Shown: positions 1,658-28,619, numbered from the stretch's first letter. The stretch is 64,000 nt of DNA from a candidate division WWE3 bacterium (GCA_052035175.1 JBPOHV010000001.1:622428-686427), one strand, 5' to 3'. Numbers and translations are program-made. Notes: generated by a model not told the origin, from the letters alone.

Positions 1658-2053
1658 ATGGATAACTGTATTTTTTGCAAAATAATAAAAGGTGAAATAC
1701 CAGCGTATAAAATTTGGGAAGACGCTCAATATATTGCGATATTAGATATTTTCCCATCTTCAAAAGGAATGACACTGGTAATACCAAAAGAACACCAGCC
1801 TAGTTATATAAAAGATCTTGATACACAAAGTTGGACAGATATGCTTAAAGCTCTAAAAGCAGTAGCAGAAATCTTGGATACAAAGTTACCTAATATAATA
1901 AGAACGAAGTTTGTTTTTGAAGGCTTGGATGTACCGCATCTACACGCAAAGCTAATACCTGAGTATCCAGAAACTTTGAAAAACCAACCACAGCCGCAAA
2001 AAGCTAGCGACGCAGAACTAGCGGAAGTAAAGAGATTACTAGACCTGGTCTGA
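1658..2053 (+). CDS. HIT-family (HINT-like) nucleotide hydrolase
   Basis: CIFCKIIKGEIPA N-terminus and a histidine-triad-like HLHAKLIP motif. The stop codon lies inside the palindromic repeat at 2042-2060. Confidence 0.7.
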   Translation: MDNCIFCKIIKGEIPAYKIWEDAQYIAILDIFPSSKGMTLVIPKEHQPSYIKDLDTQSWTDMLKALKAVAEILDTKLPNIIRTKFVFEGLDVPHLHAKLIPEYPETLKNQPQPQKASDAELAEVKRLLDLV

Positions 2054-2063
2054 CCTGGTCCTT
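2039..2063. repeat. tRNA-associated palindromic repeat (GACCTGGTC-T-GACCTGGTC)
   Basis: CTAGACCTGGTCTGACCTGGTCCTT. Same family as the copies at 11721, 27247, 28262 and 28593. Confidence 0.8.
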
Positions 2064-2067
2064 TGTA

Positions 2068-2096
2068 TTAAGTTTTCAACGCAAATAGTGTAGAAT
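2068..2096 (+). promoter_or_regulatory. putative sigma70-type promoter for tRNA-Leu(TAA)
   Basis: TTAAGT, 17-nt spacer, TAGAAT, ending about 9 nt before the tRNA 5' end. Confidence 0.4.
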
Positions 2097-2105
2097 GTGC
2101 ATCAA

Positions 2106-2191
2106 GGGCGAGTGGTGGAATGGTATACACGAAGGACTTAAAATCCTTTGTTCTTACGAACTTGAGGGTTCAAGTCCCTCCTCGCCCACCA
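2106..2191 (+). tRNA. tRNA-Leu(TAA)
   Basis: Type II tRNA with acceptor GGGCGAG/CTCGCCC, anticodon loop CTTAAAA, long variable arm and T-arm GAGGG-TTCAAGT-CCCTC. CCA is encoded. Confidence 0.8.
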
Positions 2192-2207
2192 GATAATCCC
2201 CTTATTT

Positions 2208-2771
2208 ATGCAAGATAGCATCGAGATAACAACATTAGAAAGCCTTATAGAACTTTTAAATTCTTTTAAAGTACCGTATGCAACTTGGGGTAAAGTCAGA
2301 ACTTTAGACCATTTATTTTCTGAGTTAATTGCTGGCGAATCTTATCTTACAAACACAAATAACCAGCTAACGCGTAATTTGGATGTAATATGTCTGAAAA
2401 TCATAAAAGATAACAAAGTATTACTTCAATACAAACAAATATTTGTTACAAGAGAAGAAAACAATACAATAAAACTACCTTCAGAAAAAATGTTGCAAAA
2501 TGAAAGCATTGATACTGCTTGCGCAAGATTATTAGAAGAAGAGCTTAATATAACAGGTAGCTTTAAATTCACACATCTAAAAGATAAACAAAACATAGAA
2601 CCAGCTTATGCATATCCAGGTCTTACAAATGCATTAAACTTGCATTTTTATGAAACAAATTTACCAAGCGATGTGTATATAAAAGATATTTACGAAGAGA
2701 TTAACAAAAAGCAAACAACTTATTTCAAATGGTTTGATCAAAGTAAATTAGACGAACTTAGTGATTTTTAA
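2208..2771 (+). CDS. hypothetical protein with a degenerate Nudix-like box
   Basis: ESIDTACARLLEEELNI resembles E-x7-R-E-U-x-E-E but is degenerate. Confidence 0.4.
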   Translation: MQDSIEITTLESLIELLNSFKVPYATWGKVRTLDHLFSELIAGESYLTNTNNQLTRNLDVICLKIIKDNKVLLQYKQIFVTREENNTIKLPSEKMLQNESIDTACARLLEEELNITGSFKFTHLKDKQNIEPAYAYPGLTNALNLHFYETNLPSDVYIKDIYEEINKKQTTYFKWFDQSKLDELSDF

Positions 2772-3213
2772 ATTCTTGTTTAAAATAAAGTCTTCTCATC
2801 GGACCACTTCGAGACCAAGTCTCATTTAACCCTATTGTGTCTATAATCTTTGCAGAAAGTACCACCGCTAAAATAACAGTCAAAATTAACACTGGAAAAT
2901 TCTTTTTATAAGAAAAATCATATTTCTTAAGAAGAAGAATCCCTAAGATAACTAATATGAGTGCTATAAAAGGGACCCACAAAGGAAATGCATCAAACAT
3001 TTGTATAAGACGCCCAGTACCAGGACCTTGCTTTCGTAATAAAAATAAAGTTAAATTTGTAAAAAATACCGCACCAATCATAAGACCCACAAGCCCTATG
3101 AAAGACACTATCGATCCAATTATAAAATAGATTCTCGGTTTCATTTTTACTTCACCAGACATGACTTGACTCATTATTTTATTTTCTAGATCTATTTTTA
3201 TGTTGTTTGACAT
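2758..3213 (-). CDS. membrane protein, putative anti-sigma factor
   Basis: Overlaps the 3' end of the ECF sigma gene and has three predicted TM helices. Function is inferred from context only. Confidence 0.4.
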   Translation of the reverse strand: MSNNIKIDLENKIMSQVMSGEVKMKPRIYFIIGSIVSFIGLVGLMIGAVFFTNLTLFLLRKQGPGTGRLIQMFDAFPLWVPFIALILVILGILLLKKYDFSYKKNFPVLILTVILAVVLSAKIIDTIGLNETWSRSGPMRRLYFKQEFKNH

Positions 3214-3740
3214 ATTTTCCTCATCATAACTTTGGCTCTATTAATCCTTGTTGCTACTGTACCCATAGGTAATCGTAAGATATCTCCTATTTCCTCGTAA
3301 GACTTATTTTCTATATAATACAGTGATAAAGGTTCTCTGTACTTTATATCCATAGTATCTAGACATTTGTGAATACTGGAAGCAACCTCTTCTTTTATGT
3401 ATGCGTCCTCCAAATTATCTGTACTACTAAAATCCATGTAATCTTCTATTGAAAAGCTATGCTTATATTTACCAAGTATATTCATAACTTCGTTATGAAC
3501 GATTTGATAAATCCAGCTTGAAAACTTTCGTTTCGTTTGGAAACTATTCAAATTGATATATGCCTTAATAAAACCATCTTGAACCGCATCACTTGCTTTA
3601 GCCTCATCTCCTGCTAAATAATAAGCATATCTCATAAGCTTAGTCTGATATCTCCGTATAATTTCTCCATATAATTCTTTATTGCCTTGACGCACAAGTT
3701 CTACAAGCTCTTCATCAGTTGTATTTTTATTATCATCCAT
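3198..3740 (-). CDS. ECF-type sigma-70 family RNA polymerase sigma factor
   Basis: Region 2 (YLAGDEAKASDAVQDGFIKAY) and region 4 HTH (PMGTVATRINRAKVMMRK). Confidence 0.8.
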   Translation of the reverse strand: MDDNKNTTDEELVELVRQGNKELYGEIIRRYQTKLMRYAYYLAGDEAKASDAVQDGFIKAYINLNSFQTKRKFSSWIYQIVHNEVMNILGKYKHSFSIEDYMDFSSTDNLEDAYIKEEVASSIHKCLDTMDIKYREPLSLYYIENKSYEEIGDILRLPMGTVATRINRAKVMMRKICQTT

Positions 3741-3762
3741 AGTATTTCCATTATTTTACAGT

Positions 3763-3789
3763 GCGCCCCAGTGCTTCGCGCTGGGGCGC
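3763..3789. terminator. GC-rich hairpin between the secreted-protein gene and the sigma gene
   Basis: GCGCCCCAG-TGCTTCGCG-CTGGGGCGC, a 9-bp stem. The flanking T-run is weak. Confidence 0.35.
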
Positions 3790-3807
3790 ATTGTTTCCAA
3801 TCTAACC

Positions 3808-4176
3808 TTAACGGTTATTATATCCTCTACCCATTCTCTGACCAGAACCATTGTTATAGCCTAATCCAAGTTCTTCTCTTATCTTCATCGCATCATCTTT
3901 CTTTCCTTCCAATTCTAACCTATGCGCTTCTGCAAAACGAGAAAAGTTTTGCTCATTAATTACTTGTAAGACTCTACCCTTACCTTGCATCAATTCTTTC
4001 CAAGCATTGTAATCATTAGTTTCAAATGCACTAGCCATAGCTTCATGCCTTTCTTCCGAAAAGTTTGGACCTTGTACCAATGGGTCACCTCTGTAAGCAA
4101 ACGCTTGTTGAGGAAACAACATGATCCCTCCTAAAGCTATTACTGCTGTTAATATTACTAATGTTTTTTTACTCAT
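3808..4176 (-). CDS. secreted protein (signal peptide), function unknown
   Basis: N-terminal signal peptide ending in AFA, followed by a charged helical region. Confidence 0.5.
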   Translation of the reverse strand: MSKKTLVILTAVIALGGIMLFPQQAFAYRGDPLVQGPNFSEERHEAMASAFETNDYNAWKELMQGKGRVLQVINEQNFSRFAEAHRLELEGKKDDAMKIREELGLGYNNGSGQRMGRGYNNR

Positions 4177-4293
4177 CTGAATTCACCCCCTCAATTTAAC
4201 TTTATACATATGTATTACAAATCAAGTTCTAGTTTTCTTTCATCTTTTTTGATTTTTTAAAACGGATAACAGAAAATAGCGGATAAATAGTAA

Positions 4294-5676
4294 CTAATTT
4301 TCTTTAATTTCTAGGCCTACAGTATTTAGCAAATGTGTAAACATCTCTTTTTCTATCTCAGGAGGTATTTTATAAACATCTTGATTGTTTATACGCTTCA
4401 TGACGCTTTCAATATTCGCCTGGTCATACATAAGAGCAATTAGATCTTCTACAGGTTTAGGCGATTCTGGATGCTGCTTCAAATATTCTTGTGCATATTT
4501 TATAACTAATGGCTCAAAGGCACTACGTATAGCCACATAAAAAGCATTGGTACGATCAGTATACTCATCAAAATTCACATAAGCAGTCTTCATATACTCT
4601 GCAATACTTTTACATTGAGTAAACCGTTCGCGTTCTGCCCGCTGATGAGGAGCATCAGGATTGGCTATTGGATTTGATAGCGCCTCGCTAAATTGCATAC
4701 AAATCGCTTGTTGAGCTTTCAGATGCCCAGGCTGGGTCGCAAACCACCCCATGGTTTTTTGTAAAATATAAAATTTGTCATCGTCGGTTGCCTTTTCAAA
4801 AGATTCATCAAAAGTTGCACCAAATTCTCGTAATCCCAAATTAATTTCACCAAAAAGGTTTTTACTTCCTCGTATATACGCATCATATCCATCTTTGGAG
4901 GCCGCAGCACGTAAGTCAGCATTCGCCAAACTAACACCAGCCAATAACGCACGTGGCCTTAAAGAAGCCAAATCAAAGTCTGGCAAATATTTACGAGCGT
5001 TAGATTCATATTCTTCTAATGCAGCAATATCTATGGCAGAAATACCCATAGGATTGTCTTTATTTGGTATCTTTCCTACTTGAAGAGCACGCACGGCAAA
5101 ACTAGCTAAAGGCTGAGACACCATAGTTGCTTTTATATGTGGCTTGCGTGATGTATCCAAATACTCCGAAAGATTTGGTTTCGTGCACCCGATAATAAAC
5201 ATGACTTCGGTAGGTGTATAAGACGATTCCAAACCACATGCAGTTAATGCATCAATTGCATGCACAGCAGAGTCAATTTCGTTTTGACCCTGTGGTACAG
5301 AATAACTGACTCGTTTTATGCCAGCAGCAAATTTATTTGTATTTTGTTGTATATCATGATGTTTAGCTACTATTTCGGTAGCTTTACACAAAAAAAGAAG
5401 CTCAGTTTCAATAGGAGTCAAACTTTCACCTTGATTATGTAAAGCTTCTAAATACTTTATGTAAAGTGCGTCAACTCCTAAAGCCGTAGTAAATCCTTCG
5501 AGTGTATCGGCTGTTACTGCTTGAGTATGTTCTACCATGTGAAAGGGTCTTTGATCTTCTAAAGAGTTTGATAAACCAAATCTACGATCTATTTCAGCTA
5601 CCACAGTAGCATTTACTTCATTTATCCTAGATTTACCAGGCGCTATACTTTCTAAAGTTGGTGTTAAGCTTGACAT
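4294..5676 (-). CDS. hypothetical 460-aa protein, possible HD-like motif
   Basis: Long uninterrupted ORF. The HMVEH ... AKHHDIQ spacing weakly suggests an HD-fold. Confidence 0.45.
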   Translation of the reverse strand: MSSLTPTLESIAPGKSRINEVNATVVAEIDRRFGLSNSLEDQRPFHMVEHTQAVTADTLEGFTTALGVDALYIKYLEALHNQGESLTPIETELLFLCKATEIVAKHHDIQQNTNKFAAGIKRVSYSVPQGQNEIDSAVHAIDALTACGLESSYTPTEVMFIIGCTKPNLSEYLDTSRKPHIKATMVSQPLASFAVRALQVGKIPNKDNPMGISAIDIAALEEYESNARKYLPDFDLASLRPRALLAGVSLANADLRAAASKDGYDAYIRGSKNLFGEINLGLREFGATFDESFEKATDDDKFYILQKTMGWFATQPGHLKAQQAICMQFSEALSNPIANPDAPHQRAERERFTQCKSIAEYMKTAYVNFDEYTDRTNAFYVAIRSAFEPLVIKYAQEYLKQHPESPKPVEDLIALMYDQANIESVMKRINNQDVYKIPPEIEKEMFTHLLNTVGLEIKEN

Positions 5677-5838
5677 GTATTATTAACCTTGCGACATCTG
5701 CGCTGCACCATTAGTAGCATCACCAGGCACAGAAGCAGAACCAAAACCACCTTGCTGATTTGCAGACGGAGCAGGCTGAGCGTTAATATTAGTCTGTTTT
5801 CTTTTACTCATGTTAAGTTAATTGTATTATATAGACAT

Positions 5839-6546
5839 ATGCAATTCAAAGAAATAGTGACAAAAAACAAAGTAGAAACATTAATAATTTGTTGCATATT
5901 AATTTTTGTTATAACCGGAGTTGCATCAAATATACAAGGACAAAGAGCAGTTGATCGCTCAAAATTACCTGAAAAAGTTGAATTAAATAAAAATTTTCAA
6001 AGATGGTTAACAAATCTAAAAAATAAAGAGTTACCTGTTAGTGCAGACGAATTTGTTTTTGTGGAAGACGCAGAAATTTATAATACAAAATGGATAAAAG
6101 TGTTATCGGGCGACGATCCAAATAATATTAAAGCGTATGAAGAAAACTTGGCACAACACGTTAACTTAAAAAAAGTTGTATTTTCTCCAAGTGAACACTT
6201 ATACATAGATATCAGGCCAGAAATAAGAGAAGGGTATAATCCAAACGAAGCTCATTTTTACGGTTTACTCGACGGTAAAATATTGGATGCACGTATTTTA
6301 GATTGTTCTGTAGATGCTAATTGCTATTTTGACAGGGCATATTTCATCGAGAATGATGTTTTTATTATTAGTGAATTTTCGAGAAATATTGATAAACGCC
6401 AAGCAAATAACCCTGTTTGTACAAAACAAGACATGTGCACATATAGCTTTAAACTTCATTTGATTGATTTGAAAAATAATAAAAGACTTGTATACGAATC
6501 AGCGCCATTTGACGGCATTTGGGAACAAGTCGTCCCAGAGCTATAA
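5839..6546 (+). CDS. membrane-anchored hypothetical protein
   Basis: An internal ATG (MQFKEIV...) is followed by a TM helix. The upstream part of the listed ORF (5689-5838) is R/S/T-rich and looks like a non-coding extension. Confidence 0.45.
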   Translation: MQFKEIVTKNKVETLIICCILIFVITGVASNIQGQRAVDRSKLPEKVELNKNFQRWLTNLKNKELPVSADEFVFVEDAEIYNTKWIKVLSGDDPNNIKAYEENLAQHVNLKKVVFSPSEHLYIDIRPEIREGYNPNEAHFYGLLDGKILDARILDCSVDANCYFDRAYFIENDVFIISEFSRNIDKRQANNPVCTKQDMCTYSFKLHLIDLKNNKRLVYESAPFDGIWEQVVPEL

Positions 6547-6607
6547 TGAAGCTCCCTTAGATTTCTGACCTATGATATGCTATCCAAAATCTGTAAGGAG
6601 GCTGCCA

Positions 6608-6691
6608 ATGAAAAAGAAATTCTTGATTGGATTTCTGATAGTCATAGGCATTGGGCTTATAATTAAAAAAGCCCTAGACTATGACATCTGA
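6608..6691 (+). CDS. 27-aa hydrophobic micropeptide (MKKKFLIGFLIVIGIGLIIKKALDYDI)
   Basis: A perfect SD (TAAGGAGG) lies 7 nt upstream, and a strong terminator follows immediately downstream. Confidence 0.3.
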   Translation: MKKKFLIGFLIVIGIGLIIKKALDYDI

Positions 6692-6697
6692 AGCCAC

Positions 6698-6723
6698 GCA
6701 CCGAGGCATAAATGCCTCGGTGC
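6698..6723 (+). terminator. rho-independent terminator
   Basis: GCACCGAGGCA-TAAA-TGCCTCGGTGC, an 11-bp stem, then GGATTTGTT. Confidence 0.6.
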
Positions 6724-6847
6724 GGATTTGTTAGATTAAAGGTGATAAAATAAGGCCGACGAAGTACAGTCTTGGGTATACGAGCTTACTCATCCCGCTT
6801 CGCGGGATTGCGTTTCCTCGTATAACCCCTCGCGCACTTCGTGCTCT

Positions 6848-6923
6848 CGGGGTATAGCTCAGTTGGTAGAGTGCGCGGTTTGGGACCGTGAGGTCGTGTG
6901 TTCGAGTCACACTACCCCGACCA
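6848..6923 (+). tRNA. tRNA-Pro(TGG)
   Basis: Acceptor CGGGGTA/TACCCCG, anticodon loop TTTGGGA, T-arm GTGTG-TTCGAGT-CACAC. CCA is encoded. Confidence 0.8.
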
Positions 6924-6961
6924 TTTAGCAATTTAACGTAAGTGATAGATTACCGTGACAG

Positions 6962-8551
6962 GTGATTATGAACCAAGACAAACCATTAAAATTTTCTCAG
7001 TCTTACCCAGTAATTGCACAATCAAAACTATTTGGCACACGATATGAAGTAAATAAAATACTCAAACAAAACGCAGAGAAAGTATTTTTAAAAAAGCTAT
7101 CTCAAATATTTCCAGCAATTAATATAAAAACTGAAATCATAGCTACCACATATTTTGAGCCTATACTTATGTTTGAGCCAAAAAAGTCATGCATCGTTAG
7201 ATATAGACAAAGAACAGACTTTGACACAAAAAATCAAAAATACCATATACCAAAAAAATGGGTTTTTGATGGCCCTGGGACATTGGAAGTGAAGCTGCGT
7301 GATAATGCGGAAAGGGGCAATGTTGATAAACAAGGAACATTTTTTCCAAACACAAAAGACATAAACATTAAAACATTTTTAAACCAACCAACACAGTCAA
7401 AAGTAGAAAAATATATAGAGTACGCAAATAATATGCAATACAAATGCACACTTAATAAGCACTTACGTCTTCTAGACCCCAAAACCATATCAAAAATCAC
7501 TGAAAAACTTTATCCGTATGCTACAAGGTTAAATATACGATATACGCTAGAAACAAAAACTACCGAAGAAATTCGTATTACATTTGAGACTAACCCAGTA
7601 TTTTATATATACCCAATATATCATAAAACAGGAGACACCAATACAAAACCAAAGCAATTTATTGCTGATATTGGAGAAGTTTCTAACCGAACAAAGATTG
7701 AAGTAAAAACTGAGACAAAAGCTAAAAACAGCGAGATTTATAAAAACTTGGAAAAAGAACTACGTAAGTTTCAACACCCTACAAATACATATACTGATGT
7801 ACCTTATGCAAATATGATTGTCAAAGCATCGTTGAAAACTGGTACATTGATAAATGAAGCGCCTAATATAGAAATTGAATCAAAAGCAAGTCTACCCAAT
7901 CAAACAAACATAGCAGAGTTAATCGAGACTATACGTAATGAATTGCTAAAGACTAAAAATCCAAAATATTTACTTTTTTTAACTGACCCTCGTGTAGGCT
8001 TGAGAGAATATCCAAATGTTAAAAGAACTATATTTGGATACCAAGACGAAAATGATCAATGGCATGAAGCAGTGAGATTAAATCAAGACATATCAAAAAA
8101 GACTGGATACGTATCACTTAAATGGAAGTCTGATGCTAATACTATTAATAAAACCCTTGTAAGAAAAGAGGTTACTGAAACCTTTGACCACAAGCTTACA
8201 CATAGAGAAGTAATAGAACTTGTAAAAAAACGCTTGGGGAAAAAAGTAGTGCCGCTTGGTAGCTTTACAAAGACCAAGTATAGAATACTTGTACAAGATA
8301 CAAATGGCAGAAATTTTAATATTTCAGTAGATAAAGTTAATATCTACAATAGCAGCATCTGCATGGTTCAGCTTGAATCAGAATACATTCATACAGTTGT
8401 AGCAAACAATGACCTACCAAATACATCCGTGTCTGAAGCATGTGAATCATGTATGAAATACTTTCAAAGTTTACTTAAAAAGATAGGTGTTGTAGCTGTA
8501 CCAACAACCGAACGAAAGCTAGATTTTCTTATAAAAAACAAATTACGCTGA
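6962..8551 (+). CDS. hypothetical 529-aa protein
   Basis: Long ORF with no motif I can name. Located directly 3' of tRNA-Pro. Confidence 0.45.
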   Translation: MIMNQDKPLKFSQSYPVIAQSKLFGTRYEVNKILKQNAEKVFLKKLSQIFPAINIKTEIIATTYFEPILMFEPKKSCIVRYRQRTDFDTKNQKYHIPKKWVFDGPGTLEVKLRDNAERGNVDKQGTFFPNTKDINIKTFLNQPTQSKVEKYIEYANNMQYKCTLNKHLRLLDPKTISKITEKLYPYATRLNIRYTLETKTTEEIRITFETNPVFYIYPIYHKTGDTNTKPKQFIADIGEVSNRTKIEVKTETKAKNSEIYKNLEKELRKFQHPTNTYTDVPYANMIVKASLKTGTLINEAPNIEIESKASLPNQTNIAELIETIRNELLKTKNPKYLLFLTDPRVGLREYPNVKRTIFGYQDENDQWHEAVRLNQDISKKTGYVSLKWKSDANTINKTLVRKEVTETFDHKLTHREVIELVKKRLGKKVVPLGSFTKTKYRILVQDTNGRNFNISVDKVNIYNSSICMVQLESEYIHTVVANNDLPNTSVSEACESCMKYFQSLLKKIGVVAVPTTERKLDFLIKNKLR

Positions 8552-8615
8552 TATTCTAGTATTCTTATATTCTAGTATTTTTATATTCTAGTACTTTTAC
8601 TATTCTAATATTCAT
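8552..8615. repeat. 16-bp tandem repeat (ATATTCTAGTAYTTTT x3 plus a degenerate unit)
   Basis: Direct tandem units start at the stop codon of the 529-aa gene. Confidence 0.6.
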
Positions 8616-8914
8616 AGAATTTGCATACTATTAATATTTAAAAACATAATTTATAACGATAAATATTTCGTCAGCTTAACGCACATTCAAAATTATTTCT
8701 AACAACCTTTTCTATAGTACTAATTGGAATTTTTGTATACGTAATAACAGACCGGCAATCCCCTTATCAACCAAAAGTATTCACACCTGCACAACGTACA
8801 AAAACGCAAAACTGCAAAGCTAATGGACCACTCCCTGATCGAGAATGTACACCAGGAGCGGTCTTTGAAAATGCGACAAAAGAAATAGTATGCGTTAGTG
8901 GATATTCAAAAACA

Positions 8915-9244
8915 GTGAGAATCGTATCTCAAAGTACCAAAGAAGCCATTTATAAAGCATATGGAATAACATCGCGCAAACCAAGACAATACCAAGTAGA
9001 TCATTTTGTGAGTTTGACACTAGGCGGTTCTAACGAACTCGCTAACTTGTGGCCCGAAGCAGCAGAACCATTTCCTGGTTACAACGAAAAGAATTTGATC
9101 ACAAATTACTTACACGAACTAGTCTGCAAAGGTGATCTGCCTCTAAACCAAGCTCAATATATGATTTCATGGGGCTGGGTTGACACATATAATTCTTTGA
9201 AACCAAAAAATCCATTTTTCGAAATTTACAAGCTCATGAAATGA
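8915..9244 (+). CDS. HNH-motif nuclease family protein (possibly truncated or using a non-canonical start)
   Basis: YQVDHFVSLTLGGSNELANLWPE fits an HNH/His-Me finger. The same frame is open from 8702 and encodes a TM helix and Cys-rich segment, but has no ATG, GTG or TTG until 8915. Confidence 0.45.
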   Translation: MRIVSQSTKEAIYKAYGITSRKPRQYQVDHFVSLTLGGSNELANLWPEAAEPFPGYNEKNLITNYLHELVCKGDLPLNQAQYMISWGWVDTYNSLKPKNPFFEIYKLMK

Positions 9245-9290
9245 AATATCAATATTTAACTTTTTAGTATCAAGCGTATAATTCATTCAT

Positions 9291-9767
9291 ATGAAATTGA
9301 ATCACGAACAAATACGTAATATTGTTTTTGGCGTAGAAGACAGCATAGTTTCTACAACAGGAGTTCTATTTGGAATTGCGTCGGTACAAGGCTATAACTT
9401 TAAGCAAATAGCAATAGTCGGACTTGTATTAGTAGCCGTAGAAGCAATTTCGATGGGTGTCGGGTCATTTTTGTCTGAAACGTCTGCACAAGAAGTAGAA
9501 AAGTACAAAAATCAAACACCTTTCTTAGACGGCATTTTAATGTTTTTTTCATATTTTATGACAGGAGTAATCATAGTTATGCCTTATATAATCCTCAATT
9601 CAAACAATGCAAGATATTATTCGGCAGCGCTAGCATTTTTATTATTAGGTTTATTAGGCTATATGCCACAACGAAAACTAAAATCGGCGTTACGTATGTT
9701 GTTTCTAGGTGGTATGGCACTCATTGCTGGTTACACTATTGCCAATTATCTAAATCTCAATTTGTAA
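9291..9767 (+). CDS. VIT1/CCC1-family membrane protein (putative Fe/Mn transporter)
   Basis: FGVEDSIVSTTGVLFG motif and multiple TM helices. Confidence 0.6.
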   Translation: MKLNHEQIRNIVFGVEDSIVSTTGVLFGIASVQGYNFKQIAIVGLVLVAVEAISMGVGSFLSETSAQEVEKYKNQTPFLDGILMFFSYFMTGVIIVMPYIILNSNNARYYSAALAFLLLGLLGYMPQRKLKSALRMLFLGGMALIAGYTIANYLNLNL

Positions 9768-9844
9768 TCGCAATTTCTAATAAAAATAGAATTTACGTGC
9801 TTGAAAATTCCGGTGTATACCGTTAACATTAGTCTTACATATAT

Positions 9845-10549
9845 ATGTCCAACTTTTTTTCAAAAAATGGTAAACAACTCAAAGGCTATGAAACTACAAT
9901 AAAACACGTAGAAACTATAAACTCACTAAGCGACTTAAAACCATTATATGAATCAATTCAAATAAAGTGGAAAAGTTTATTTTCGTCACTTGCTATGACT
10001 GCAGTGTCGTTTGGGGCTGTACTACTTGTAATTGCGCCATCGGTAAAAGCATCTGTAAATATTCAAAAGTACAATATTTTTTCTTCCAGACCATTTGTAA
10101 TGGAAGACGTCTCTAATGTAATCAATACTGGTGATTCTCGATCTCAAAAAATTAATGCCGTTTTCAAAGAATTTAATTGCCCTTTGTACGGTTATGGAGA
10201 AACATTTGTAACTGAAGCCGATAAAAATAATATACCTTGGTGGTTGGTTGCATCAGTATCTTTTCAAGAATCAAATTGCGGAAAGAAAACACCACTTAAT
10301 GATGGGCAAGAAACTTACAACGCATATGGCTGGGGTGTTTGGGGCGGAAATGCATTTCAATTTGATAATTGGGAACACGGCGTAGCAGTTGTATCTCGTT
10401 ATATGAGCACAAAATTCTTTTCGAAAGGTGTTACAGAACCTTGCACTATAATGGCAACCTACACACCACCTTCTAATGGATCATGGTGCAGAGGTGTTCA
10501 ATATTTTGGCGATATTATTCAAAATTACGAATCTCCCGATTACCTTTAA
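9845..10549 (+). CDS. membrane-anchored protein with putative transglycosylase-like (lysozyme-like) domain
   Basis: SFQESNCG...YNAYGWGVWGGN resembles ES...N.YGG transglycosylase-like motifs. Paralogue of 10676-11197. Confidence 0.35.
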   Translation: MSNFFSKNGKQLKGYETTIKHVETINSLSDLKPLYESIQIKWKSLFSSLAMTAVSFGAVLLVIAPSVKASVNIQKYNIFSSRPFVMEDVSNVINTGDSRSQKINAVFKEFNCPLYGYGETFVTEADKNNIPWWLVASVSFQESNCGKKTPLNDGQETYNAYGWGVWGGNAFQFDNWEHGVAVVSRYMSTKFFSKGVTEPCTIMATYTPPSNGSWCRGVQYFGDIIQNYESPDYL

Positions 10550-10675
10550 GACTAAACCGTTTGAAAGTTGCTAAACCGCGATATATGGTATAATTTCTCT
10601 TGTCTTCGACCTTATTGGTCAGATAAATACTCTTTAAAAAGGCTTACATAAGCCACAAATTCCTGCATACAACTT

Positions 10676-11197
10676 ATGATCAAAATTTACAACATTATTG
10701 CTATATTTGCGTTTATTTATATCTCTGCAATTACCAACAGTGAAAAGATATTTGCAGAACCCTTTGTCGATGAAAGTATAAAAATTGAAGATAAGATCGA
10801 GAGTAAACAAGTAAATAGAGCAGAATTAATAGATAAGTATCTAGATAAACATAAATCACCTGTGATGGGTAAAGGGGAATTCATAGTACAAACTGCTGAT
10901 AAATATAATCTGGACTATAAACTATTGGTAGCAATTTCTGGAATAGAATCTACTTTTTGCAAAAGAATTCCTTATCAGTCTTATAACTGCTGGGGGTGGG
11001 GGATATATGGCAATAACATGATTAAGTTCAACTCGTTTGAAGAAGGTTTTGAAAAAGTTGCGCAAGGGCTTAGCGAGCATTATGTAAGTAAAGGGCTAGA
11101 TACTCCTGAAAAGATTGGTAGAAAGTATAACCCTCCAAATCCTGTAAAGTGGGCTGCAGCTGTGAATAAATTTGCGAGTGATATTGAGAAAAACTAA
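10676..11197 (+). CDS. secreted paralogue with putative transglycosylase-like domain
   Basis: GIESTFCKRIPYQSYNCWGWGIYGNN. Shares the ES..C...N..GWG(I/V)(W/Y)G pattern with the upstream gene. Confidence 0.35.
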   Translation: MIKIYNIIAIFAFIYISAITNSEKIFAEPFVDESIKIEDKIESKQVNRAELIDKYLDKHKSPVMGKGEFIVQTADKYNLDYKLLVAISGIESTFCKRIPYQSYNCWGWGIYGNNMIKFNSFEEGFEKVAQGLSEHYVSKGLDTPEKIGRKYNPPNPVKWAAAVNKFASDIEKN

Positions 11198-11607
11198 CTT
11201 ATCAGAGATTCTGCAACTAATCTCGGCAATACATCATGTTTAAATATAGAGCCTATTTCAATATCTTCTGGAATATTCTTGCCAACCCATAAGGTAGATT
11301 CAACCTCATTACTGGGAATGAAATCTCCAACCCAAGACTTTACAACAAAGACTTGCATTGTGACAAAGAAGCCAGGTTTACCGGCTGCTTCTGCTCTAAA
11401 TGTACCAAACTCTTGTAAGTCTACCTCTGTAACAGCTATGTTTAACTCTTCCTTTAATTCGCGCACTAATGCTTGTTTAGCTGTTTCACCAGCTTCCAAC
11501 TTGCCTCCAGGAGAAACATAGACAGTTTTATTAAATGACTTTGTGAGTAATAATTTTTTATCTTTTATGATAATTCCAGCAGCTTTATGTATATCCACGT
11601 CTTGCAT
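11194..11607 (-). CDS. Nudix hydrolase
   Basis: Nudix box GGKLEAGETAKQALVRELKEELNI. Start is set at MQDVDIH because the longer listed ORF overlaps the tRNA. Confidence 0.7.
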   Translation of the reverse strand: MQDVDIHKAAGIIIKDKKLLLTKSFNKTVYVSPGGKLEAGETAKQALVRELKEELNIAVTEVDLQEFGTFRAEAAGKPGFFVTMQVFVVKSWVGDFIPSNEVESTLWVGKNIPEDIEIGSIFKHDVLPRLVAESLIS

Positions 11608-11615
11608 ATAGTTTA

Positions 11616-11699
11616 TGGTGGGCGAGAGAGGACTTGAACCTCCACCCCTTGCGGGACATGGTCCTAAGCCATGCGTGTATACCATTCCACCACTCGCCC
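11616..11699 (-). tRNA. tRNA-Leu(TAG)
   Basis: Reverse complement folds as a type II tRNA with anticodon loop CTTAGGA. Its 5' half is identical to tRNA-Leu(TAA) at 2106. CCA is encoded. Confidence 0.8.
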
Positions 11700-11720
11700 A
11701 AGTGGTTGTATTTTAACACA

Positions 11721-11743
11721 GAGACCAGGTCAGACCTGGTCTC
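11721..11743. repeat. tRNA-associated palindromic repeat (perfect palindrome GAGACCAGGTC-A-GACCTGGTCTC)
   Basis: Lies 22 nt upstream of the tRNA-Leu(TAG) 5' end, overlapping its inferred -35 region. Confidence 0.8.
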
Positions 11744-11767
11744 TAAATAACTGCTACAATATATGCA

Positions 11768-12547
11768 ATGCTCACAAAAGACAAAATAAAAGGCTTTCTG
11801 ACCCCCCAGAACATTTATTTGACTATCATTACAATATTAGTCTTATTTTGTGCCGTACAACTAGCTTGGATACAAATACAGTATAAGTATTTTAATGCAA
11901 ATGAAGAATTTCGTAAGCAAGCACTCAATAAATATGTAAACACACAACTACAATTGAAAGACCGCATTTCAGATTTGGAAGCAAAAGAAAAAGCTTCTCA
12001 ATATAAAATCCGCGAAGCCTACGAACATGTCTTGCATACTATGTTCTTCGAAGAACTTGGTAATAAGCAAACTTATTTAGATGGCAAATACAAACTTCAG
12101 TATTCTTTTCAAAGTGGAGGCCAGTTCTGTTATGACTTTTATATTTGCAATGGTATAGATTGCCAAATGCACCCAGACTCAGAAACTATGGCATGTATAA
12201 ACAGCAATAAAGAACTTACTGATTTTCATGTAGACGAACTACTTACAAAAGTAAGCAAACACCCGCTGATTGTAATAAATTACGAAGAAAACAGCTGGAC
12301 TAAACAAGAAATGCTACTTCCTTACGATTGTAACTCACAAATATGTTATGAACAGTTGTCAAACAAAACTAAAATAAGCGCAGATGATAAATATCAATTA
12401 GACAGTTTTGAAATTAGCACAAATGCAACAACAGGAGATTTGGAAGTAAAAGCCAGGTTGTACAATGGACAAAGCGGAGTACCGACAATATGGAGAACTT
12501 ATACTCTTACAGAGAAAGACGGCATGATCATAGTTAGTATAGGTTAA
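11768..12547 (+). CDS. membrane-anchored Cys-rich hypothetical protein
   Basis: N-terminal TM helix and a Cys-rich extracytoplasmic region. Confidence 0.45.
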   Translation: MLTKDKIKGFLTPQNIYLTIITILVLFCAVQLAWIQIQYKYFNANEEFRKQALNKYVNTQLQLKDRISDLEAKEKASQYKIREAYEHVLHTMFFEELGNKQTYLDGKYKLQYSFQSGGQFCYDFYICNGIDCQMHPDSETMACINSNKELTDFHVDELLTKVSKHPLIVINYEENSWTKQEMLLPYDCNSQICYEQLSNKTKISADDKYQLDSFEISTNATTGDLEVKARLYNGQSGVPTIWRTYTLTEKDGMIIVSIG

Positions 12548-20910: not shown

Positions 20911-20947
20911 TTGACTAAGAAACAATACACATTGTAATATATTAACA

Positions 20948-21235: not shown

Positions 21236-21323
21236 GCGGATATACTTTAAATAAAGTAGATAGTTCAGGTAATAAATATTAAATTTCTTGCATCTCTAAA
21301 CAAACCCTTTAGTTGGTGCTAAA

Positions 21324-23108: not shown

Positions 23109-23159
23109 GTTTTAGGGCGTAAAGACGGAGGTTTTTCAACTATACAAAGAAAATACGAT

Positions 23160-23651: not shown

Positions 23652-23663
23652 TATAAGTTTGAT

Positions 23664-23873
23664 ATGAAGACAAGAAAAACGTTAATAAAAAGAATAAAAA
23701 TAACAAAAAGCGGTAAAATTGTTAAAAAGCAAAATAGCACAGGCCATTTAAAAGCAAAATGGGACGCTAGCAGAAAAACAAGAAAAAGAACCAGACTAGT
23801 ACAATTGAACAAAGGACATAGAAGGTTATTTAAAAAAATGCTAGGAAAAGCAGGAAAAAAGATAAAAGGTTAA
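23664..23873 (+). CDS. rpmI: ribosomal protein L35
   Basis: MKTRKTLIKRIKITKSGKI... Confidence 0.85.
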   Translation: MKTRKTLIKRIKITKSGKIVKKQNSTGHLKAKWDASRKTRKRTRLVQLNKGHRRLFKKMLGKAGKKIKG

Positions 23874-23877
23874 TAAT

Positions 23878-24234
23878 ATGCCAAGAGCAAAAGGTGGATT
23901 TAAAACAAAACGAAAACATAATAAAGTACTTAGCTTAGCAAAAGGCTATCGTGGTACTAGAAATAGACTTTTCAAAAGAGCTAATGAAGCAGTCTTAAGA
24001 GCAGGAGAACATGCATTTGCAGGACGTAAAATAAAACGAAGAGATTTGCGCAGATTATGGATTGTACGTATAAATGCTGCACTCATGCCATTTGATATCA
24101 AATACAGCCGATTTATAAATGCTCTCAAAAAAGCAAATATCGACTTGGATCGCAAAGTATTATCCGACATGGCTATTACTGATCCCAAATCTTTTGAAAA
24201 GGTGGTTGAAAAAGCCAAAGAATCGTTTAATTAG
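23878..24234 (+). CDS. rplT: ribosomal protein L20
   Basis: MPRAKGGFKTKRKHNKVLSLAKGYRG... Confidence 0.9.
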   Translation: MPRAKGGFKTKRKHNKVLSLAKGYRGTRNRLFKRANEAVLRAGEHAFAGRKIKRRDLRRLWIVRINAALMPFDIKYSRFINALKKANIDLDRKVLSDMAITDPKSFEKVVEKAKESFN

Positions 24235-24269
24235 TTTAATTCGACCAACTACCCTGATAGAATATCAAT

Positions 24270-25298: not shown

Positions 25299-25306
25299 AA
25301 ACAAAT

Positions 25307-27250
25307 ATGAAAATACCTGTTGAATGGTTATCTGAATACATAAAAATAAATAAGACGCCAAAAGAACTAGCGCAAGACTTTACAGCGGTTGGATTGATGC
25401 TTGATAAGTATGATGAAAAAAACAGTGTACTCGATCTAGAACACCGCATGGATCGCTCTGATTGGCTTTCTATATTAGGGTGTGCTAGAGATTTGGCAGC
25501 ATATAACAAAACTGAACTAAGATATCCAAAAGCTTACTTAGCAGATTTACCAAAGATTCCTGAAAGTGAGCAAGTGCAAATAAATGTAGAAGGAACTGAT
25601 TTTGTTAATAGATTTTATACACGTATTTTCAAAAACATAAAAATACAAGATTCTCCAGATTGGCTGAAAAAGCGATTGGAAGCATATGGTTTACCTTCTA
25701 TAAATAATATTGTAGATATAACCAATTATGTAATGGTCGAATACGGACAACCAATGCACGCACACGACTTGGACAAAATGCAAACAAAAGAGATTACTTT
25801 CAGACACGCAAAACCTGGTGAAAAGATTGTAACCTTGCTAGGACAAGAGATAGAACTCGACTCTAATACTTGGATAACAACAAACAACAATTTACCTACA
25901 GGCGTAGCTGGAATTGTAGGTGGAAAACAAGTAGCAATAGATGCGACAACAAAAAATATTGTTTTGGATTCTGGAAATTATAATCAAACAACAATTAGGC
26001 ATACATCAAGAAACATTAAAATAACCAATGAAACTGTTTTGCGCACAGATAAGTTTTTGCACGCGCACAACAATGAACTTGCAATAAAAAGAGCAACTCA
26101 GCTCATACTAGAACTGGCAGGCGGGGACGCTTTTGAAAATTTCGACTATTATCCAACGAGGCAAGGCCTGACCAAGCAACAGCTTAGATATAGCAGACTA
26201 GTAAAAATTGGCGGTATGCATTTTTCAGACGCTGAAATTGAAGATATTTTAACGAGATTAGAATACAAAGTATTATCAAAAAAAGAAGCTGAAGATAATA
26301 CAAAGTTATGGGAACTCGAAGTACCTTATTTTAGAACAGACGTCCAAGTCGAAGACGACATTGTCGCAGATATATTGCGAATAAACGATTACAACAAAAT
26401 ACCAGCCGCATCGATAGACATGGCACCACCATCAGAGATAACACCTGCGGCATATAAATTTGAACAACTATTAAAAGATGAATTGGTAAAATTAGGTCTT
26501 GACGAACATATAACTGCCCCAATGATACCTATCGACAAACTTAACACCGAGCAAGTAACGATTTTGAGTAGCCTGAGCGCAGACAGACAAGGTCTGAGAA
26601 CAAATGTATATACTACGTTGAAAGCTGCTATCGACACTTATAAAAAGCACAATTTACATGAAATAGGGGTATTTGAAATAGGAAATACTTTTCACAAAAC
26701 TGGGAATGGTTCAAAACACGAAGACTATTTAGAAAAAAAGGAAGTAGAAATAATATACGAAAATACTCAGATGAACGTGAAAGAAAACTCAATCAAACTG
26801 AGACAAATTTTAGCAAGCTTATTAACTACTTTGGGAATCGCTAACTACTATCTAGAAAAAGAAGGTCAAAATGTGTGTATAAAATCACAAAGTCAAAATA
26901 CTTTGGGAATACTCACACATACGCACGCTACCTTGGCGATTGATACGTTGCTACTTGAGTATAAAAAACCAAGGTTAGCTATTTCTGAAATGCAAAACTT
27001 TACCAACTTTGATATTTCTTTGGTTATGAATCTAGAGCAACAATTTGGTGCGATATATAAATCTATTAAAGATTTTGATCAAAATATTGTTGATGTCGTT
27101 GTTGCTGAAGACTACATTGGTGCAAATGTCGAACAAGGCAAAAAAGCTGTGTTGGTTCAAATTACGCATAAATTAGCTGATACTTCAGAAGCACGAGTTA
27201 AGCTTTTGGAACATTTGGTTAAAACTTTTAATATTTCTCACCGCAGTTAA
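25307..27250 (+). CDS. pheT: phenylalanyl-tRNA synthetase beta subunit (short form)
   Basis: Its position after pheS, the B3/B4 and B5-like regions, and its length of 647 aa. Confidence 0.85.
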   Translation: MKIPVEWLSEYIKINKTPKELAQDFTAVGLMLDKYDEKNSVLDLEHRMDRSDWLSILGCARDLAAYNKTELRYPKAYLADLPKIPESEQVQINVEGTDFVNRFYTRIFKNIKIQDSPDWLKKRLEAYGLPSINNIVDITNYVMVEYGQPMHAHDLDKMQTKEITFRHAKPGEKIVTLLGQEIELDSNTWITTNNNLPTGVAGIVGGKQVAIDATTKNIVLDSGNYNQTTIRHTSRNIKITNETVLRTDKFLHAHNNELAIKRATQLILELAGGDAFENFDYYPTRQGLTKQQLRYSRLVKIGGMHFSDAEIEDILTRLEYKVLSKKEAEDNTKLWELEVPYFRTDVQVEDDIVADILRINDYNKIPAASIDMAPPSEITPAAYKFEQLLKDELVKLGLDEHITAPMIPIDKLNTEQVTILSSLSADRQGLRTNVYTTLKAAIDTYKKHNLHEIGVFEIGNTFHKTGNGSKHEDYLEKKEVEIIYENTQMNVKENSIKLRQILASLLTTLGIANYYLEKEGQNVCIKSQSQNTLGILTHTHATLAIDTLLLEYKKPRLAISEMQNFTNFDISLVMNLEQQFGAIYKSIKDFDQNIVDVVVAEDYIGANVEQGKKAVLVQITHKLADTSEARVKLLEHLVKTFNISHRS

Positions 27251-27273
27251 GGACCTGGTCAGACCTGGTCTAG
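27247..27273. repeat. 27-bp inverted-repeat end (left) TTAAGGACCTGGTCAGACCTGGTCTAG
   Basis: Perfect reverse complement of 28593-28619. It overlaps the pheT stop codon. Confidence 0.9.
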
Positions 27274-27377
27274 TGTTCATAAATATGTTATCGTCTCATC
27301 GTAGGTTTTGTGAGCAGCTAATCCCGCGGCCCGGGAAGTAGCTGTCTTAATCAACACAAGACCTGCAACACCAGATG

Positions 27378-27440
27378 GGAACAGTAGCTTCAAAGTGACG
27401 TTTGTCGCACCTCCCATCTGGTTTTTCTTTTTTTTGCACT
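27378..27440 (+). terminator. rho-independent terminator (likely end of the thrS-pheT operon)
   Basis: CCAGATGGGA ... TCCCATCTGG 10-bp stem followed by TTTTTCTTTTTTTTG. Confidence 0.55.
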
Positions 27441-27578
27441 TCCGAGACAATCATAGTAATATCCCAACAGCTAAAGCAGTGGCGAGATATGTGTAGGCGA
27501 AAGCCAGCAAGCCGCGAATCGCGGAACACTAATCTCCCTCTGCTTTAGCACACTCGTTTAAAGGTTAAACCTTCATAT

Positions 27579-27607
27579 TTGCTTATTTTAAAAGTTTTGT
27601 ATAGAAT
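27579..27607 (+). promoter_or_regulatory. putative sigma70 promoter for the tRNA-like gene at 27621
   Basis: TTGCTT, 17-nt spacer, TAGAAT. Confidence 0.4.
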
Positions 27608-27620
27608 GCACTCCATCGCC

Positions 27621-27692
27621 GGAGATGTAGCTCAATTGGGAGAGCACCGAGCTTTTGCTCGTAGGTTGCAGGTTCGAGTCCCGCCATTTCCA
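27621..27692 (+). tRNA. tRNA-like gene, anticodon region CTTTTG (Lys-TTT-like), apparent 6-nt anticodon loop, no encoded CCA
   Basis: Acceptor GGAGATG/CATTTCC pairs at all 7 positions with one G-U, and the D-arm GCTC-AATTGGGA-GAGC is canonical. The T-arm GCAGG-TTCGAGT-CCCGC has one mismatch. The anticodon stem CCGAG/CTCGT leaves only 6 loop nucleotides. Confidence 0.45.
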
Positions 27693-27960
27693 TTCGAGTG
27701 CACAACAGGTAGAACGTCTCCTATCATGTTGTGCGCTCGTGTAGGGCTGACAAGGTGATGCGCTCGCATCATTAACCTTGTCAGCCCTCCTCCAAATTCT
27801 TCACATACACCACTTACGTGATACTATTCAAACATTAAAATGTGCAAGCGGGAAACTATATGCACATACGGAGTGAAGCTTAGAAATGCTCGGTCAGGCA
27901 TCGGGGATTTTATTCTAGCTTCACTCCTTTGCTTTCTAAACACCCAACTTTAAGATTTGA

Positions 27961-27989
27961 TTGACCTATAGTTGTGGTGTTGTTATACT
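27961..27989 (+). promoter_or_regulatory. near-consensus sigma70 promoter
   Basis: TTGACC, 17-nt spacer, TATACT. Confidence 0.5.
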
Positions 27990-27996
27990 AGCGTTT

Positions 27997-28085
27997 GATA
28001 AACTGTGCCCAAGAAACTTGGACACAGTATCGTTGGGGCATTGCTTCGCCGCAAGGCACAGGAAAAGCAATGCCCCCATTTTCTT
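27997..28085 (+). ncRNA. candidate small RNA or structured tRNA leader
   Basis: Directly downstream of the consensus promoter. Ends in GGGGCATTGC...GCAATGCCCC (10-bp stem) followed by CATTTTCTTT, which abuts the tRNA at 28087. Confidence 0.3.
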
Positions 28086-28086
28086 T

Positions 28087-28160
28087 AGGGATGTGGCGCA
28101 ATTGGAAGACGCGTCGGACTTATAATCCGAATTTTGCGGGTTCGAAGCCCGTCATCCCTA
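28087..28160 (+). tRNA. candidate tRNA-Ile(TAT), no encoded CCA
   Basis: Acceptor AGGGATG/CATCCCT, anticodon stem TCGGA/TCCGA with loop CTTATAA, T-arm GCGGG-TTCGAAG-CCCGT. The D-arm is irregular (3-bp stem, 11-nt loop). Confidence 0.5.
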
Positions 28161-28261
28161 TATAGCCTACAAGAACAAACGTCTCTCTTGTAGACTTACT
28201 GGATGCATTTGGTGATAGCCTCCTTCTATCTTCTAATGCATCCAGTTTATTCAAATGTTAT

Positions 28262-28288
28262 TTAAGGACCTGGTCAGACCTGGTCTAA
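28262..28288. repeat. internal direct copy of the 27-bp repeat (TTAAGGACCTGGTCAGACCTGGTCTAA)
   Basis: 26 of 27 positions identical to the left end copy. Confidence 0.9.
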
Positions 28289-28400
28289 TATTTATAAATC
28301 CCACGTCTTAGGTTAATAGCTTATTTTTTTTAATAGATTGTTTTTTTAATGGACAAGTTTGCCTTTTGTTCGGGTACTTAGTATAATCCAAGACATAAAA

Positions 28401-28471
28401 GGCGGTATAGCTCAGCGGGAGAGCACCGGGCGACAACCCGGAAGTCCGTGGTCCGACTCCACGTGCCGCCA
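28401..28471 (+). tRNA. tRNA-like gene, anticodon region CGACAA, apparent 6-nt loop, unusual T-loop TCCGACT, no encoded CCA
   Basis: Acceptor GGCGGTA/TGCCGCC, D-arm GCTC-AGCGGGA-GAGC, anticodon stem CCGGG/CCCGG enclosing 6 nt, T-stem CGTGG/CCACG. Confidence 0.45.
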
Positions 28472-28592
28472 ATCCGGAGTATATTATGCGGTCGTAACCA
28501 ATCGTTCCGCTTATATACTCTAGAGTAGAGTGAACTAAGGGCCTTACCTAAGGCGTTCGCCTTTAGTTCACTCTAATTTTCTTTATTGGAAA

Positions 28593-28619
28593 CTAGACCA
28601 GGTCTGACCAGGTCCTTAA
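28593..28619. repeat. 27-bp inverted-repeat end (right), exact reverse complement of 27247-27273
   Basis: CTAGACCAGGTCTGACCAGGTCCTTAA. Abuts the PBP1A stop codon. Confidence 0.9.

Follow-up and report, generated by a model that had tools for sequence, protein, structure and literature searches.

Short repeats with dyad symmetry are known in bacteria as the ends of miniature inverted-repeat transposable elements (MITEs), as repetitive extragenic palindromes (REPs), as the sites of Xer recombination modules, and as tandem operators. Genomes of the Candidate Phyla Radiation (CPR, or Patescibacteria) are small and repeat-poor and are thought to carry few mobile elements. Here, we describe a tandem pair of 9-bp palindromes, GACCWGGTC-N-GACCWGGTC (the motif), in a 64,000-nt stretch from a candidate division WWE3 bacterium (GCA_052035175.1 JBPOHV010000001.1:622428-686427; hereafter the window, with positions counted from its first letter). 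The motif lies close to tRNA genes and borders an apparent insertion that holds RNA genes only (the island).

MITE-like elements, such as the Correia elements of Neisseria and the IS5-group derivatives that use a YTAR target, have terminal inverted repeats of about 30 nt and no internal transposase, and in both respects the island is like them. Like them, it stands at a short AT-rich palindromic sequence, the putative target (TTAA fits YTAR), in a tight junction that is empty in relatives; its ends and target may resemble those of IS5-type elements. However, the 1.37 kb of RNA genes in the island body occur once and recurrence is limited to the ends, there is a third, internal end, each motif end consists of two tandem 9-bp palindromes, solitary ends stand at tRNA-Leu genes, and no cognate insertion sequence (IS) was found. 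REP sequences and the mosaic elements built from them (BIMEs), which go with REP-associated tyrosine transposases (RAYTs), are likewise short extragenic palindromes found in both orientations, at gene 3' ends and in local clusters, with a unit copied between loci. They differ from the motif, which occurs at low density and without sequence scatter, lacks a GTAG-type tetranucleotide, forms poor hairpins, and has no RAYT gene seen with it.

The dif modules (pdif) of Acinetobacter plasmids and the attC sites of integrons also frame cargo between sites of about 28 bp with no recombinase inside; the repeat common to the island copies is 28 nt long, and a Xer-family gene exists in the sequence examined. 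Unlike them, the motif has no ATAA/TTAT arms and has a one-base centre, which leaves a spacer of 5 or 7 bp instead of 6; the island copies are oriented +,+,- and do not alternate as in pdif modules, and the Xer gene is 39 kb away and housekeeping-like. Finally, the met boxes read by MetJ and the CIRCE element read by HrcA are, like the motif, conserved short tandem palindromes recognized by cooperating dimers at few sites per genome. In contrast to these operators, the position of the motif relative to promoters varies, one site has no gene, the flanks are copied along with it, and the sites bracket an insertion.

The tandem motif and the island that it borders

The motif, GACCWGGTCNGACCWGGTC, has five exact matches in the window, at 2042, 11723, 27252, 28267, and 28596, compared with 0.01 expected by chance (100 shuffles). 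An earlier annotation of the window made without any database search (the sequence-only reading) had listed five copies with their positions and their distances to tRNA genes, all of which proved correct. To extend the sample, the window was joined to Logan contigs of the same organism, reached via window-encoded proteins, which added 8.3 kb on the left (L118) and 8.3 kb on the right (L122), a gain of 16.6 kb. The resulting 80,647 nt (window coordinates -8342 to 72304) amount to ca. 9% of a genome of roughly 925 kb, which is the main limit on every genome-wide statement made below. Within this sequence there were five copies with no mismatch, none with one to four mismatches, and two chance-level sites with five mismatches. 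The window has ten exact 9-mer half-sites, each of them part of one of the five tandems, and a single lone half-site was found in the 80.6 kb, inside the RNase HII coding region of an added flank. The motif is the sole dispersed repeat family in the 80.6 kb, its five copies falling at three loci and leaving 48 of the 53 intergenic regions empty. An independent assembly of the same organism (Logan SRR34217543, contig L116) was 100% identical to the window over 14 kb, island included, and the repeats are thus not an assembly artefact.

Variation among the five copies is confined to the two W positions and the central N, the other 16 bases being invariant. Each 9-mer is palindromic in itself and paired with the other at a 10-bp phase, an inner symmetry that a single 19-nt palindrome would not need. 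The sequence-only reading had recognized this arrangement as the geometry of a protein site, and the pattern of variation agrees with it: the motif fits recognition of duplex DNA by symmetric protein dimers at two sites one helical turn apart. In four of the five copies the two W carry the same base, so that the halves are direct repeats and any hairpin would contain a T.T or A.A mismatch. A DNA uptake sequence (about one copy per kilobase, single units occurring within genes as well) was discarded, since the isolated half-site in the RNase HII gene is the only one and all others stand in the five tandems.

Read in a common orientation, four copies are AAG-GACCWGGTC-A-GACCWGGTC-TA, and copy 2 is AGA-...-TCT. 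The asymmetric flanks (AAG on one side and TAGT on the other) are common to copy 1 and the island copies, which points to the copying of a unit of at least 26 nt between loci and not to independent evolution of operators. Copy 1 (2039 to 2064, minus strand; core 2042 to 2060, GACCTGGTC-T-GACCTGGTC) reads AAG-GACCAGGTC-A-GACCAGGTC-TAGT on the minus strand, overlaps the final four codons of a HIT gene (GAC CTG GTC TGA), and lies 45 nt upstream of tRNA-Leu(TAA), a core tRNA on the plus strand with encoded CCA (2106 to 2191). Copy 2 (11720 to 11744) is a perfect 25-nt palindrome, AGAGACCAGGTC-A-GACCTGGTCTCT, in a divergent region, with the minus-strand tRNA-Leu(TAG), another core tRNA with encoded CCA (11616 to 11699), 22 to 24 nt away on one side and an open reading frame (ORF) starting at 11768 on the other; it overlaps the -35 positions of both putative divergent promoters. 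Copy 3 (27247 to 27284, plus strand) is the left border repeat of the island, TTAAGGACCTGGTCAGACCTGGTCTAGTGTTCATAAAT, and the pheT stop codon TAA (27248 to 27250) lies within its leading TTAA. Copy 4 (28257 to 28299, plus strand) is internal, between the tRNA-Ile unit and the unit of the second tRNA-like gene. Copy 5 (28587 to 28624, minus strand) forms the right border of the island and is in inverted orientation to both copies 3 and 4; a single nucleotide separates its TTAA (28616 to 28619) from the stop codon (28621 to 28623) of a convergent penicillin-binding protein (PBP) gene. Three of the copies lie 0 to 3 nt from the stop codons of flanking protein genes.

The island (27251 to 28615, plus strand) is 1.37 kb long with a GC content of 44% and no credible ORF. 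It is bounded by inverted copies, 31 to 33 nt long, of TTAAGGACCTGGTCAGACCTGGTCTAGT, and its outer ends read TTAA followed by GGACCTGGTC. Copies 3 and 4 share a direct repeat of 38 nt (27247/28262, 92% identical); inverted arms pair 27247-27279 with 28587-28619 (33 nt, 94%) and 28257-28287 with 28594-28624 (31 nt, 97%). The repeat length of 19 to 25 nt given by the sequence-only reading falls short at the island copies.

We compared the pheT/PBP junction with that of other genomes. PheT homologues place the host (GC ca. 36%) in the Patescibacteria, near candidate division WWE3, and the nearest sampled relatives have only ca. 50% PheT identity. The gene order thrS-infC-rpmI-rplT-pheS-pheT, followed by the PBP gene on the minus strand and RecG, is kept in four of them, where the pheT/PBP junction is a 14-nt overlap (L120 and L135), a gap of 0 nt (L136), or contains one small gene (L121). 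The island is absent from the orthologous junction in all four of these distant genomes, and their loci (14 to 22 kb) contained no tRNA, tandem motif, or half-site. In the window, the C-termini of PheT and the PBP are of native length. Deleting in silico the island and one TTAA gives ...CGC AGT TAA A TTA CTC..., with the convergent stop codons 1 nt apart and CACCGCAGTTAAATTACTCCAG as the empty site; junctions in the relatives are of this type, with ...TAG|TTA... in L136. TTAA stands on both outer sides of the island (27247 to 27250 and 28616 to 28619) and, being palindromic, could belong to the repeat. From these comparisons, the island is an insertion bounded by the motif, and it fits exactly between two stop codons, that of pheT and that of the convergent PBP gene. 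Its cargo is also foreign in character, given the GC content of 44% compared with ca. 36% for the genome (69% in the second tRNA-like gene alone), the lack of encoded CCA in its three tRNA or tRNA-like genes (it is encoded in six of the six core tRNAs), the 6-nt anticodon loops of two of them, and identities of at most 67% to any host tRNA. At a junction that is of zero length in relatives, a perfectly conserved double palindrome frames an acquired RNA-only island. What is new here is that the island copies form the terminal inverted repeats of an insertion which is specific to this lineage, holds RNA genes only, and has an atypical tRNA-like cargo.

Placement near tRNA genes, promoters, and terminators

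ARAGORN and Rfam found eight tRNA-type genes in the window, all within its first 28.5 kb: tRNA-Arg, tRNA-Leu(TAA), tRNA-Pro, tRNA-Leu(TAG) (minus strand), tRNA-Val, and, in the island, tRNA-Ile(UAU) and two tRNA-like genes. The added flanks contained one tRNA-Gly, left of the window, and no further tandem motif. All five copies lie at most 360 nt from a tRNA or tRNA-like gene. As a placement test, random positions were drawn from the 6,540 intergenic bases (53 regions) of the 80.6 kb, where the share of intergenic sequence near such genes is 12% within 60 nt, 20% within 130 nt, and 28.5% within 360 nt. The probability of the observed placement was 0.0019 for all five copies, 0.0064 with the island taken as one locus, and 0.0056 for the two copies outside the island alone. 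The motif search and enrichment test that had been proposed as a check were thus carried out on the 80.6 kb, and the enrichment held (P 0.0019 to 0.0064). The tRNA association is real within the sampled ca. 9% of the genome.

Long spacers without a tRNA gene (287, 363, 456, and 622 nt) had no copy of the motif. The canonical tRNAs for Arg, Pro, and Val lack a copy, as had been reported, and tRNA-Gly makes a fourth. The statement that the motif stands next to tRNA genes needs one amendment, in that two of the island "tRNAs" (27621 and 28401) are non-canonical, with 6-nt anticodon loops; enrichment near tRNA and tRNA-like genes is what stands.

Promoters were assigned by consensus matches only. 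The motif centre lies at about -52 for tRNA-Leu(TAA), about -29 for tRNA-Leu(TAG), whose promoter is of the extended -10 type and has its -35 position within copy 2, and about -118 for the second tRNA-like gene. Copy 3 is ca. 340 nt upstream of the promoter of the first tRNA-like gene, and copy 5 sits between the 3' ends of convergent units with nothing downstream. A single operator mechanism at tRNA promoters, one of the roles suggested by the sequence-only reading, is not supported by these positions, which vary (-52, -29, -118, ca. 340 nt, and none).

Its judgement that the motif is a poor intrinsic terminator was borne out. The local folds of copies 1, 3, 4, and 5 (-7.6 to -10.4 kcal/mol) had z scores of -0.3 to -2.2 and were no better than shuffles; copy 2 alone folds strongly, as a perfect hairpin of 11 to 12 bp (z about -6). 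No T-run follows the motif at any of the five copies. A canonical intrinsic terminator, with a stem at 27367 to 27425 followed by TTTTTCTTTTTTTT, lies downstream of copy 3, which places this copy inside the pheST 3' untranslated region (UTR) and means that it is not the terminator. The motif is not a terminator.

Possible mobile ends and alternative roles

We tentatively favour a reading in which a transposase or site-specific recombinase would recognize the motif, and the motif would form the ends of a non-autonomous RNA-gene cassette inserted at TTAA. A dimer would be seated on each 9-mer of the tandem palindromes, at the 10-bp phase, and the whole site would terminate or border a small mobile cassette free of protein genes. 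The segment may have entered by cut-and-paste or site-specific insertion at a TTAA, with duplication of this TTAA as a result, and with the enzyme encoded elsewhere in the genome or supplied in trans. The solitary copies upstream of the tRNA-Leu genes would be further copies of the unit of at least 26 nt, maybe single ends or secondary recombination sites, and would stay intact because the protein still reads them. The link to tRNA genes could then have two sources, namely tRNA-type genes travelling as cargo, and tRNA-flanking spacers being among the few insertion-tolerant places in a compact genome. The att-like and REP-like options of the sequence-only reading come closer to this evidence than its other proposals did, although it had missed that the island copies stand as the terminal inverted repeats of an insertion. 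If the motif is indeed a transposition or recombination end, stable-RNA genes would be trafficked with no protein gene on the element, and the motif would provide a sequence handle for finding the enzyme.

A number of observations weigh against such mobile ends. The 80.6 kb contained no transposase or dedicated recombinase, the only recombinase being a generic Xer-family gene ca. 39 kb from the island that looks housekeeping and whose protein scored 249 bits against the XerC model, under the cut-off of 335 bits. The motif lacks dif-type arms (ATAA...TTAT), and its palindrome is centred on one base, with a spacer of 5 or 7 bp; core sites of tyrosine recombinases have two inverted arms, of a consensus typical of the family, around a spacer of 6 to 8 bp. 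Only the ends recur, the island body being single-copy in the 80.6 kb, and the palindromic TTAA may belong to the inverted repeat instead of marking a duplicated target. Copies 1 and 2 each stand alone, with no flanking TTAA and no partner end within 10 kb; moreover, their location 33 to 55 nt upstream of both tRNA-Leu genes (P about 0.006) is not something that mobile ends would predict. The internal copy 4 has no simple explanation, and the relatives with the empty site are distant, at only ca. 50% PheT identity.

Nor was a related element found in the public collections scanned, which covered metagenomes and viral, phage, and plasmid sequences. The bare 19-mer was not informative in genome contigs because chance matches in high-GC genomes swamp the signal (the lowest GC content among 115 loci was 49%), and its one match in IMG/VR, in a coding region of a contig with 62% GC, was due to chance. 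JGI metagenomes and IMG/VR had no match to the extended 23-mer, and the 43-nt extended repeat gave nothing meaningful in phage and plasmid collections. A metagenome scan in which an AT-rich flank was required returned 12 loci, none from CPR and none near a tRNA; the majority turned out to be (GACCAGGTCW)n microsatellites of eukaryote-like character or a mobile element of Bacteroidota type. The (GACCAGGTCW)n arrays, of two to four units (L126, L129, L130, L133, and L134), have no long ORFs, look eukaryotic, and bear no relation to the motif described here. Phage matches to the island DNA were due only to generic tRNA similarity, and a literature search for the motif string or comparable elements found nothing relevant.

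A bolder version of mobile ends is a CPR platform of the integron or dif-module type, in which protein-free cassettes of tRNA and tRNA-like genes, every gene with a promoter and hairpin trailers of its own, would be moved, stacked, inverted, or excised by a site-specific enzyme at the tandem GACCWGGTC site, with the tRNA-Leu copies as docking sites and the tRNA-like cargo (6-nt anticodon loops, no CCA) non-decoding. We regard this as improbable, but a demonstrated cassette system for stable-RNA genes would sharply raise the importance of the locus.

The alternative that survives best, possible although in our view somewhat unlikely, is a role as operator, insulator, or roadblock, with a host protein bound to the tandem palindromes as a tetramer (dimer of dimers). 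This protein would regulate a subset of stable RNAs (both tRNA-Leu genes and the island) or shield them from mRNA read-through, and the island copies could loop. The geometry suits a dimer of dimers on one helix face, the restriction of variation to W and N implies a protein that reads the remaining 16 bases, and the significant tRNA proximity (P 0.002 to 0.006), with a copy 33 to 55 nt upstream of both tRNA-Leu genes, is accounted for directly. Copy 2 covers the -35 positions of two divergent promoters, and three copies stand 0 to 3 nt from protein-gene stop codons, where a roadblock would act. However, there is no constant promoter geometry (-52, -29, -118, or none), copy 5 has no gene downstream, copy 2 has no read-through to block, and the four other tRNAs have no site. 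Operators usually show a range of degenerate sites, whereas all five copies are perfect and no near-perfect sites exist. The shared asymmetric flanks and the identity over 31 to 38 nt in the island indicate copying and not convergence, and the exact bracketing of an insertion is hard to explain by regulation. The sequence-only reading had called for a candidate binding regulator; none lies next to any copy, and the nearby regulatory gene encodes an extracytoplasmic function (ECF) sigma factor, which does not bind palindromes. Were the motif a regulator or insulator site after all, it would be among the first defined cis-elements for the control of stable-RNA genes in the phylum.

On sequence grounds, a CtsR box, a DasR/GntR dre site, an ECF-sigma promoter, a dif site, and parS were also dropped, as was a promoter inside the motif that would face outward.

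We consider it improbable that the motif is REP-like or of the IS200/IS605 type, that is, a single-stranded DNA hairpin read by a Y1 (HUH) transposase such as RAYT, with a unit of ca. 26 nt that spread and an island resembling a BIME. The motif is a short extragenic near-palindrome that occurs in either orientation, frequently where genes end, and with a cluster in a single long spacer; the shared asymmetric flanks imply the copying of a short unit. As a hairpin it would have a 3-nt loop on a stem of ca. 8 bp that is mismatched at its centre, and Y1 transposases use imperfect hairpins of similar size. Against this, there are only five copies at three loci in the 80.6 kb, with 48 of 53 intergenic regions empty, including spacers of 287 to 622 nt, and no sequence scatter among the copies. 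No GTAG-type 5' tetranucleotide is present (the flanks are CTA, AAG, AGA, or TTA), the hairpins are no better than shuffles in four of the five copies, the inner palindromy of each 9-mer is needless for a hairpin, and no Y1 or RAYT gene was seen in the annotated 80.6 kb.

A role at the RNA level is very unlikely, whether as a terminator, as an mRNA-stabilizing 3' hairpin, or as inverted island copies pairing into an RNase III site as in rRNA operons. The perfect hairpin of copy 2 (11 to 12 bp, z about -6), the position of copies 1, 3, and 5 in mRNA 3' ends, and inverted arms of 31 to 33 nt, long enough for an RNase III duplex in a genome with an RNase III gene, would suit it. However, four of the five hairpins are weak (-7.6 to -10.4 kcal/mol) with no U-tract, and the same base at both W in four of the five copies breaks pairing. 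Copy 2, situated between divergent promoters, is probably untranscribed, and the arms would rarely be co-transcribed, with a terminator between copy 3 and the rest of the island and promoters downstream of copies 3 and 4.

A chance cluster, or a Dcm/EcoRII-type methylation or restriction feature without other meaning, is effectively refuted, although each half-site contains CCWGG, as the sequence-only reading had pointed out. It is refuted by the 0.01 matches expected, by CCWGG outside the motif being neither avoided nor enriched (CCAGG 57 observed against 51.6 expected, CCTGG 31 against 34.2), by the absence of any methylase or EcoRII-like gene seen in the annotated region, and by a constraint that reaches GA..TC beyond CCWGG and the tandem layout.

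RNA cargo and neighbouring genes

From left to right, the island begins with a structured RNA that includes an intrinsic terminator (about 27293-27440), after which come a long hairpin (27470-27549), the first tRNA-like gene (27621-27692), and three further hairpins (27695-27739, 27743-27788, and about 27870-27930). A promoter (27961-27989) precedes the structured leader (27990-28085) of tRNA-Ile(UAU) (28086-28161), which is followed by a terminator-like hairpin (28198-28246), a second promoter (28359-28387), the second tRNA-like gene (28401-28471), and a last hairpin (28526-28575). Beyond the tRNAs, no Rfam match was found in the island, even at E of ≤1. Structure is dense at 27285-27575 and 27693-27960 (z scores of -7.6 and -9.3 against shuffles), and the first of these segments, which ends in the intrinsic terminator, could be a small RNA derived from the pheST 3' UTR.

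The two tRNA-like genes scored 55 and 54 bits against the Rfam tRNA model, and each has a 6-nt anticodon loop. One resembles a tRNA-Lys(UUU) without position 37 and the other a tRNA-Val(GAC) without U33. Each has its own sigma-70-type promoter, and two long hairpins come after the gene. They are probably not ordinary decoders. The tRNA-Ile(UAU), with an anticodon that is rare for tRNA-Ile in bacteria, has a strong predicted promoter (TTGACC-17-TATACT with an upstream TG) and a leader of ca. 95 nt with two stable hairpins. Whichever reading of the motif holds, the cargo merits a study of its own for its dense long hairpins and its tRNA-like genes, which are driven by promoters and have 6-nt anticodon loops.

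Elsewhere in the window, the two motif-preceded tRNA-Leu genes face each other (2042 to 11741) and enclose a segment of 9.7 kb with tRNA-Pro and many ORFs of unknown function; several ORFs at 2208-11197 match no Pfam or NCBIfam family. The ECF-type sigma factor gene (3198-3740, minus strand; region 2758-3740), ca. 0.6 kb downstream of tRNA-Leu(TAA), overlaps a downstream ORF of 151 amino acids (aa) without a family match, which is possibly an anti-sigma factor. At the other tRNA-Leu gene, a NUDIX gene starts 8 nt after tRNA-Leu(TAG) on the same strand, which suggests co-transcription. A TACAAT -10 box ends 7 nt before the ATG of ORF 11768 (11755-11770), and this ORF appears leaderless from the spacing.

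Type IV pilus or competence-type clusters are typical of CPR bacteria, and one occupies positions 37797-57373, with PilM/N/O, a run of pilin-like ORFs of ca. 190 aa, a prepilin peptidase, PilC, two PilB/PilT-type ATPases, and a 1,061-aa protein without a family match. Further downstream, two paralogous genes for secreted proteins with Pro/Thr-rich linkers (60154-60867 and 61020-61595) form a local patch of 45% GC; the sole database match was the protein itself, and the family looks orphan. The Logan contig breaks near this pair, where the 9-mer GACGAGGTC is present twice, at 60920 and 61646. Lastly, in the right-hand flank (L122, 3940-4561; about 67.7 to 68.4 kb in window coordinates), a very AT-rich spacer of 622 nt stands upstream of the Xer-family tyrosine recombinase gene and close to gyrB/gyrA. 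It contains the direct repeat GTAGATTTGTCATAGTTTTCTGCT/GTAGGTTTGTCATAGTTTTG and a DnaA-box-like TTATCCA and could be an origin or dif region.

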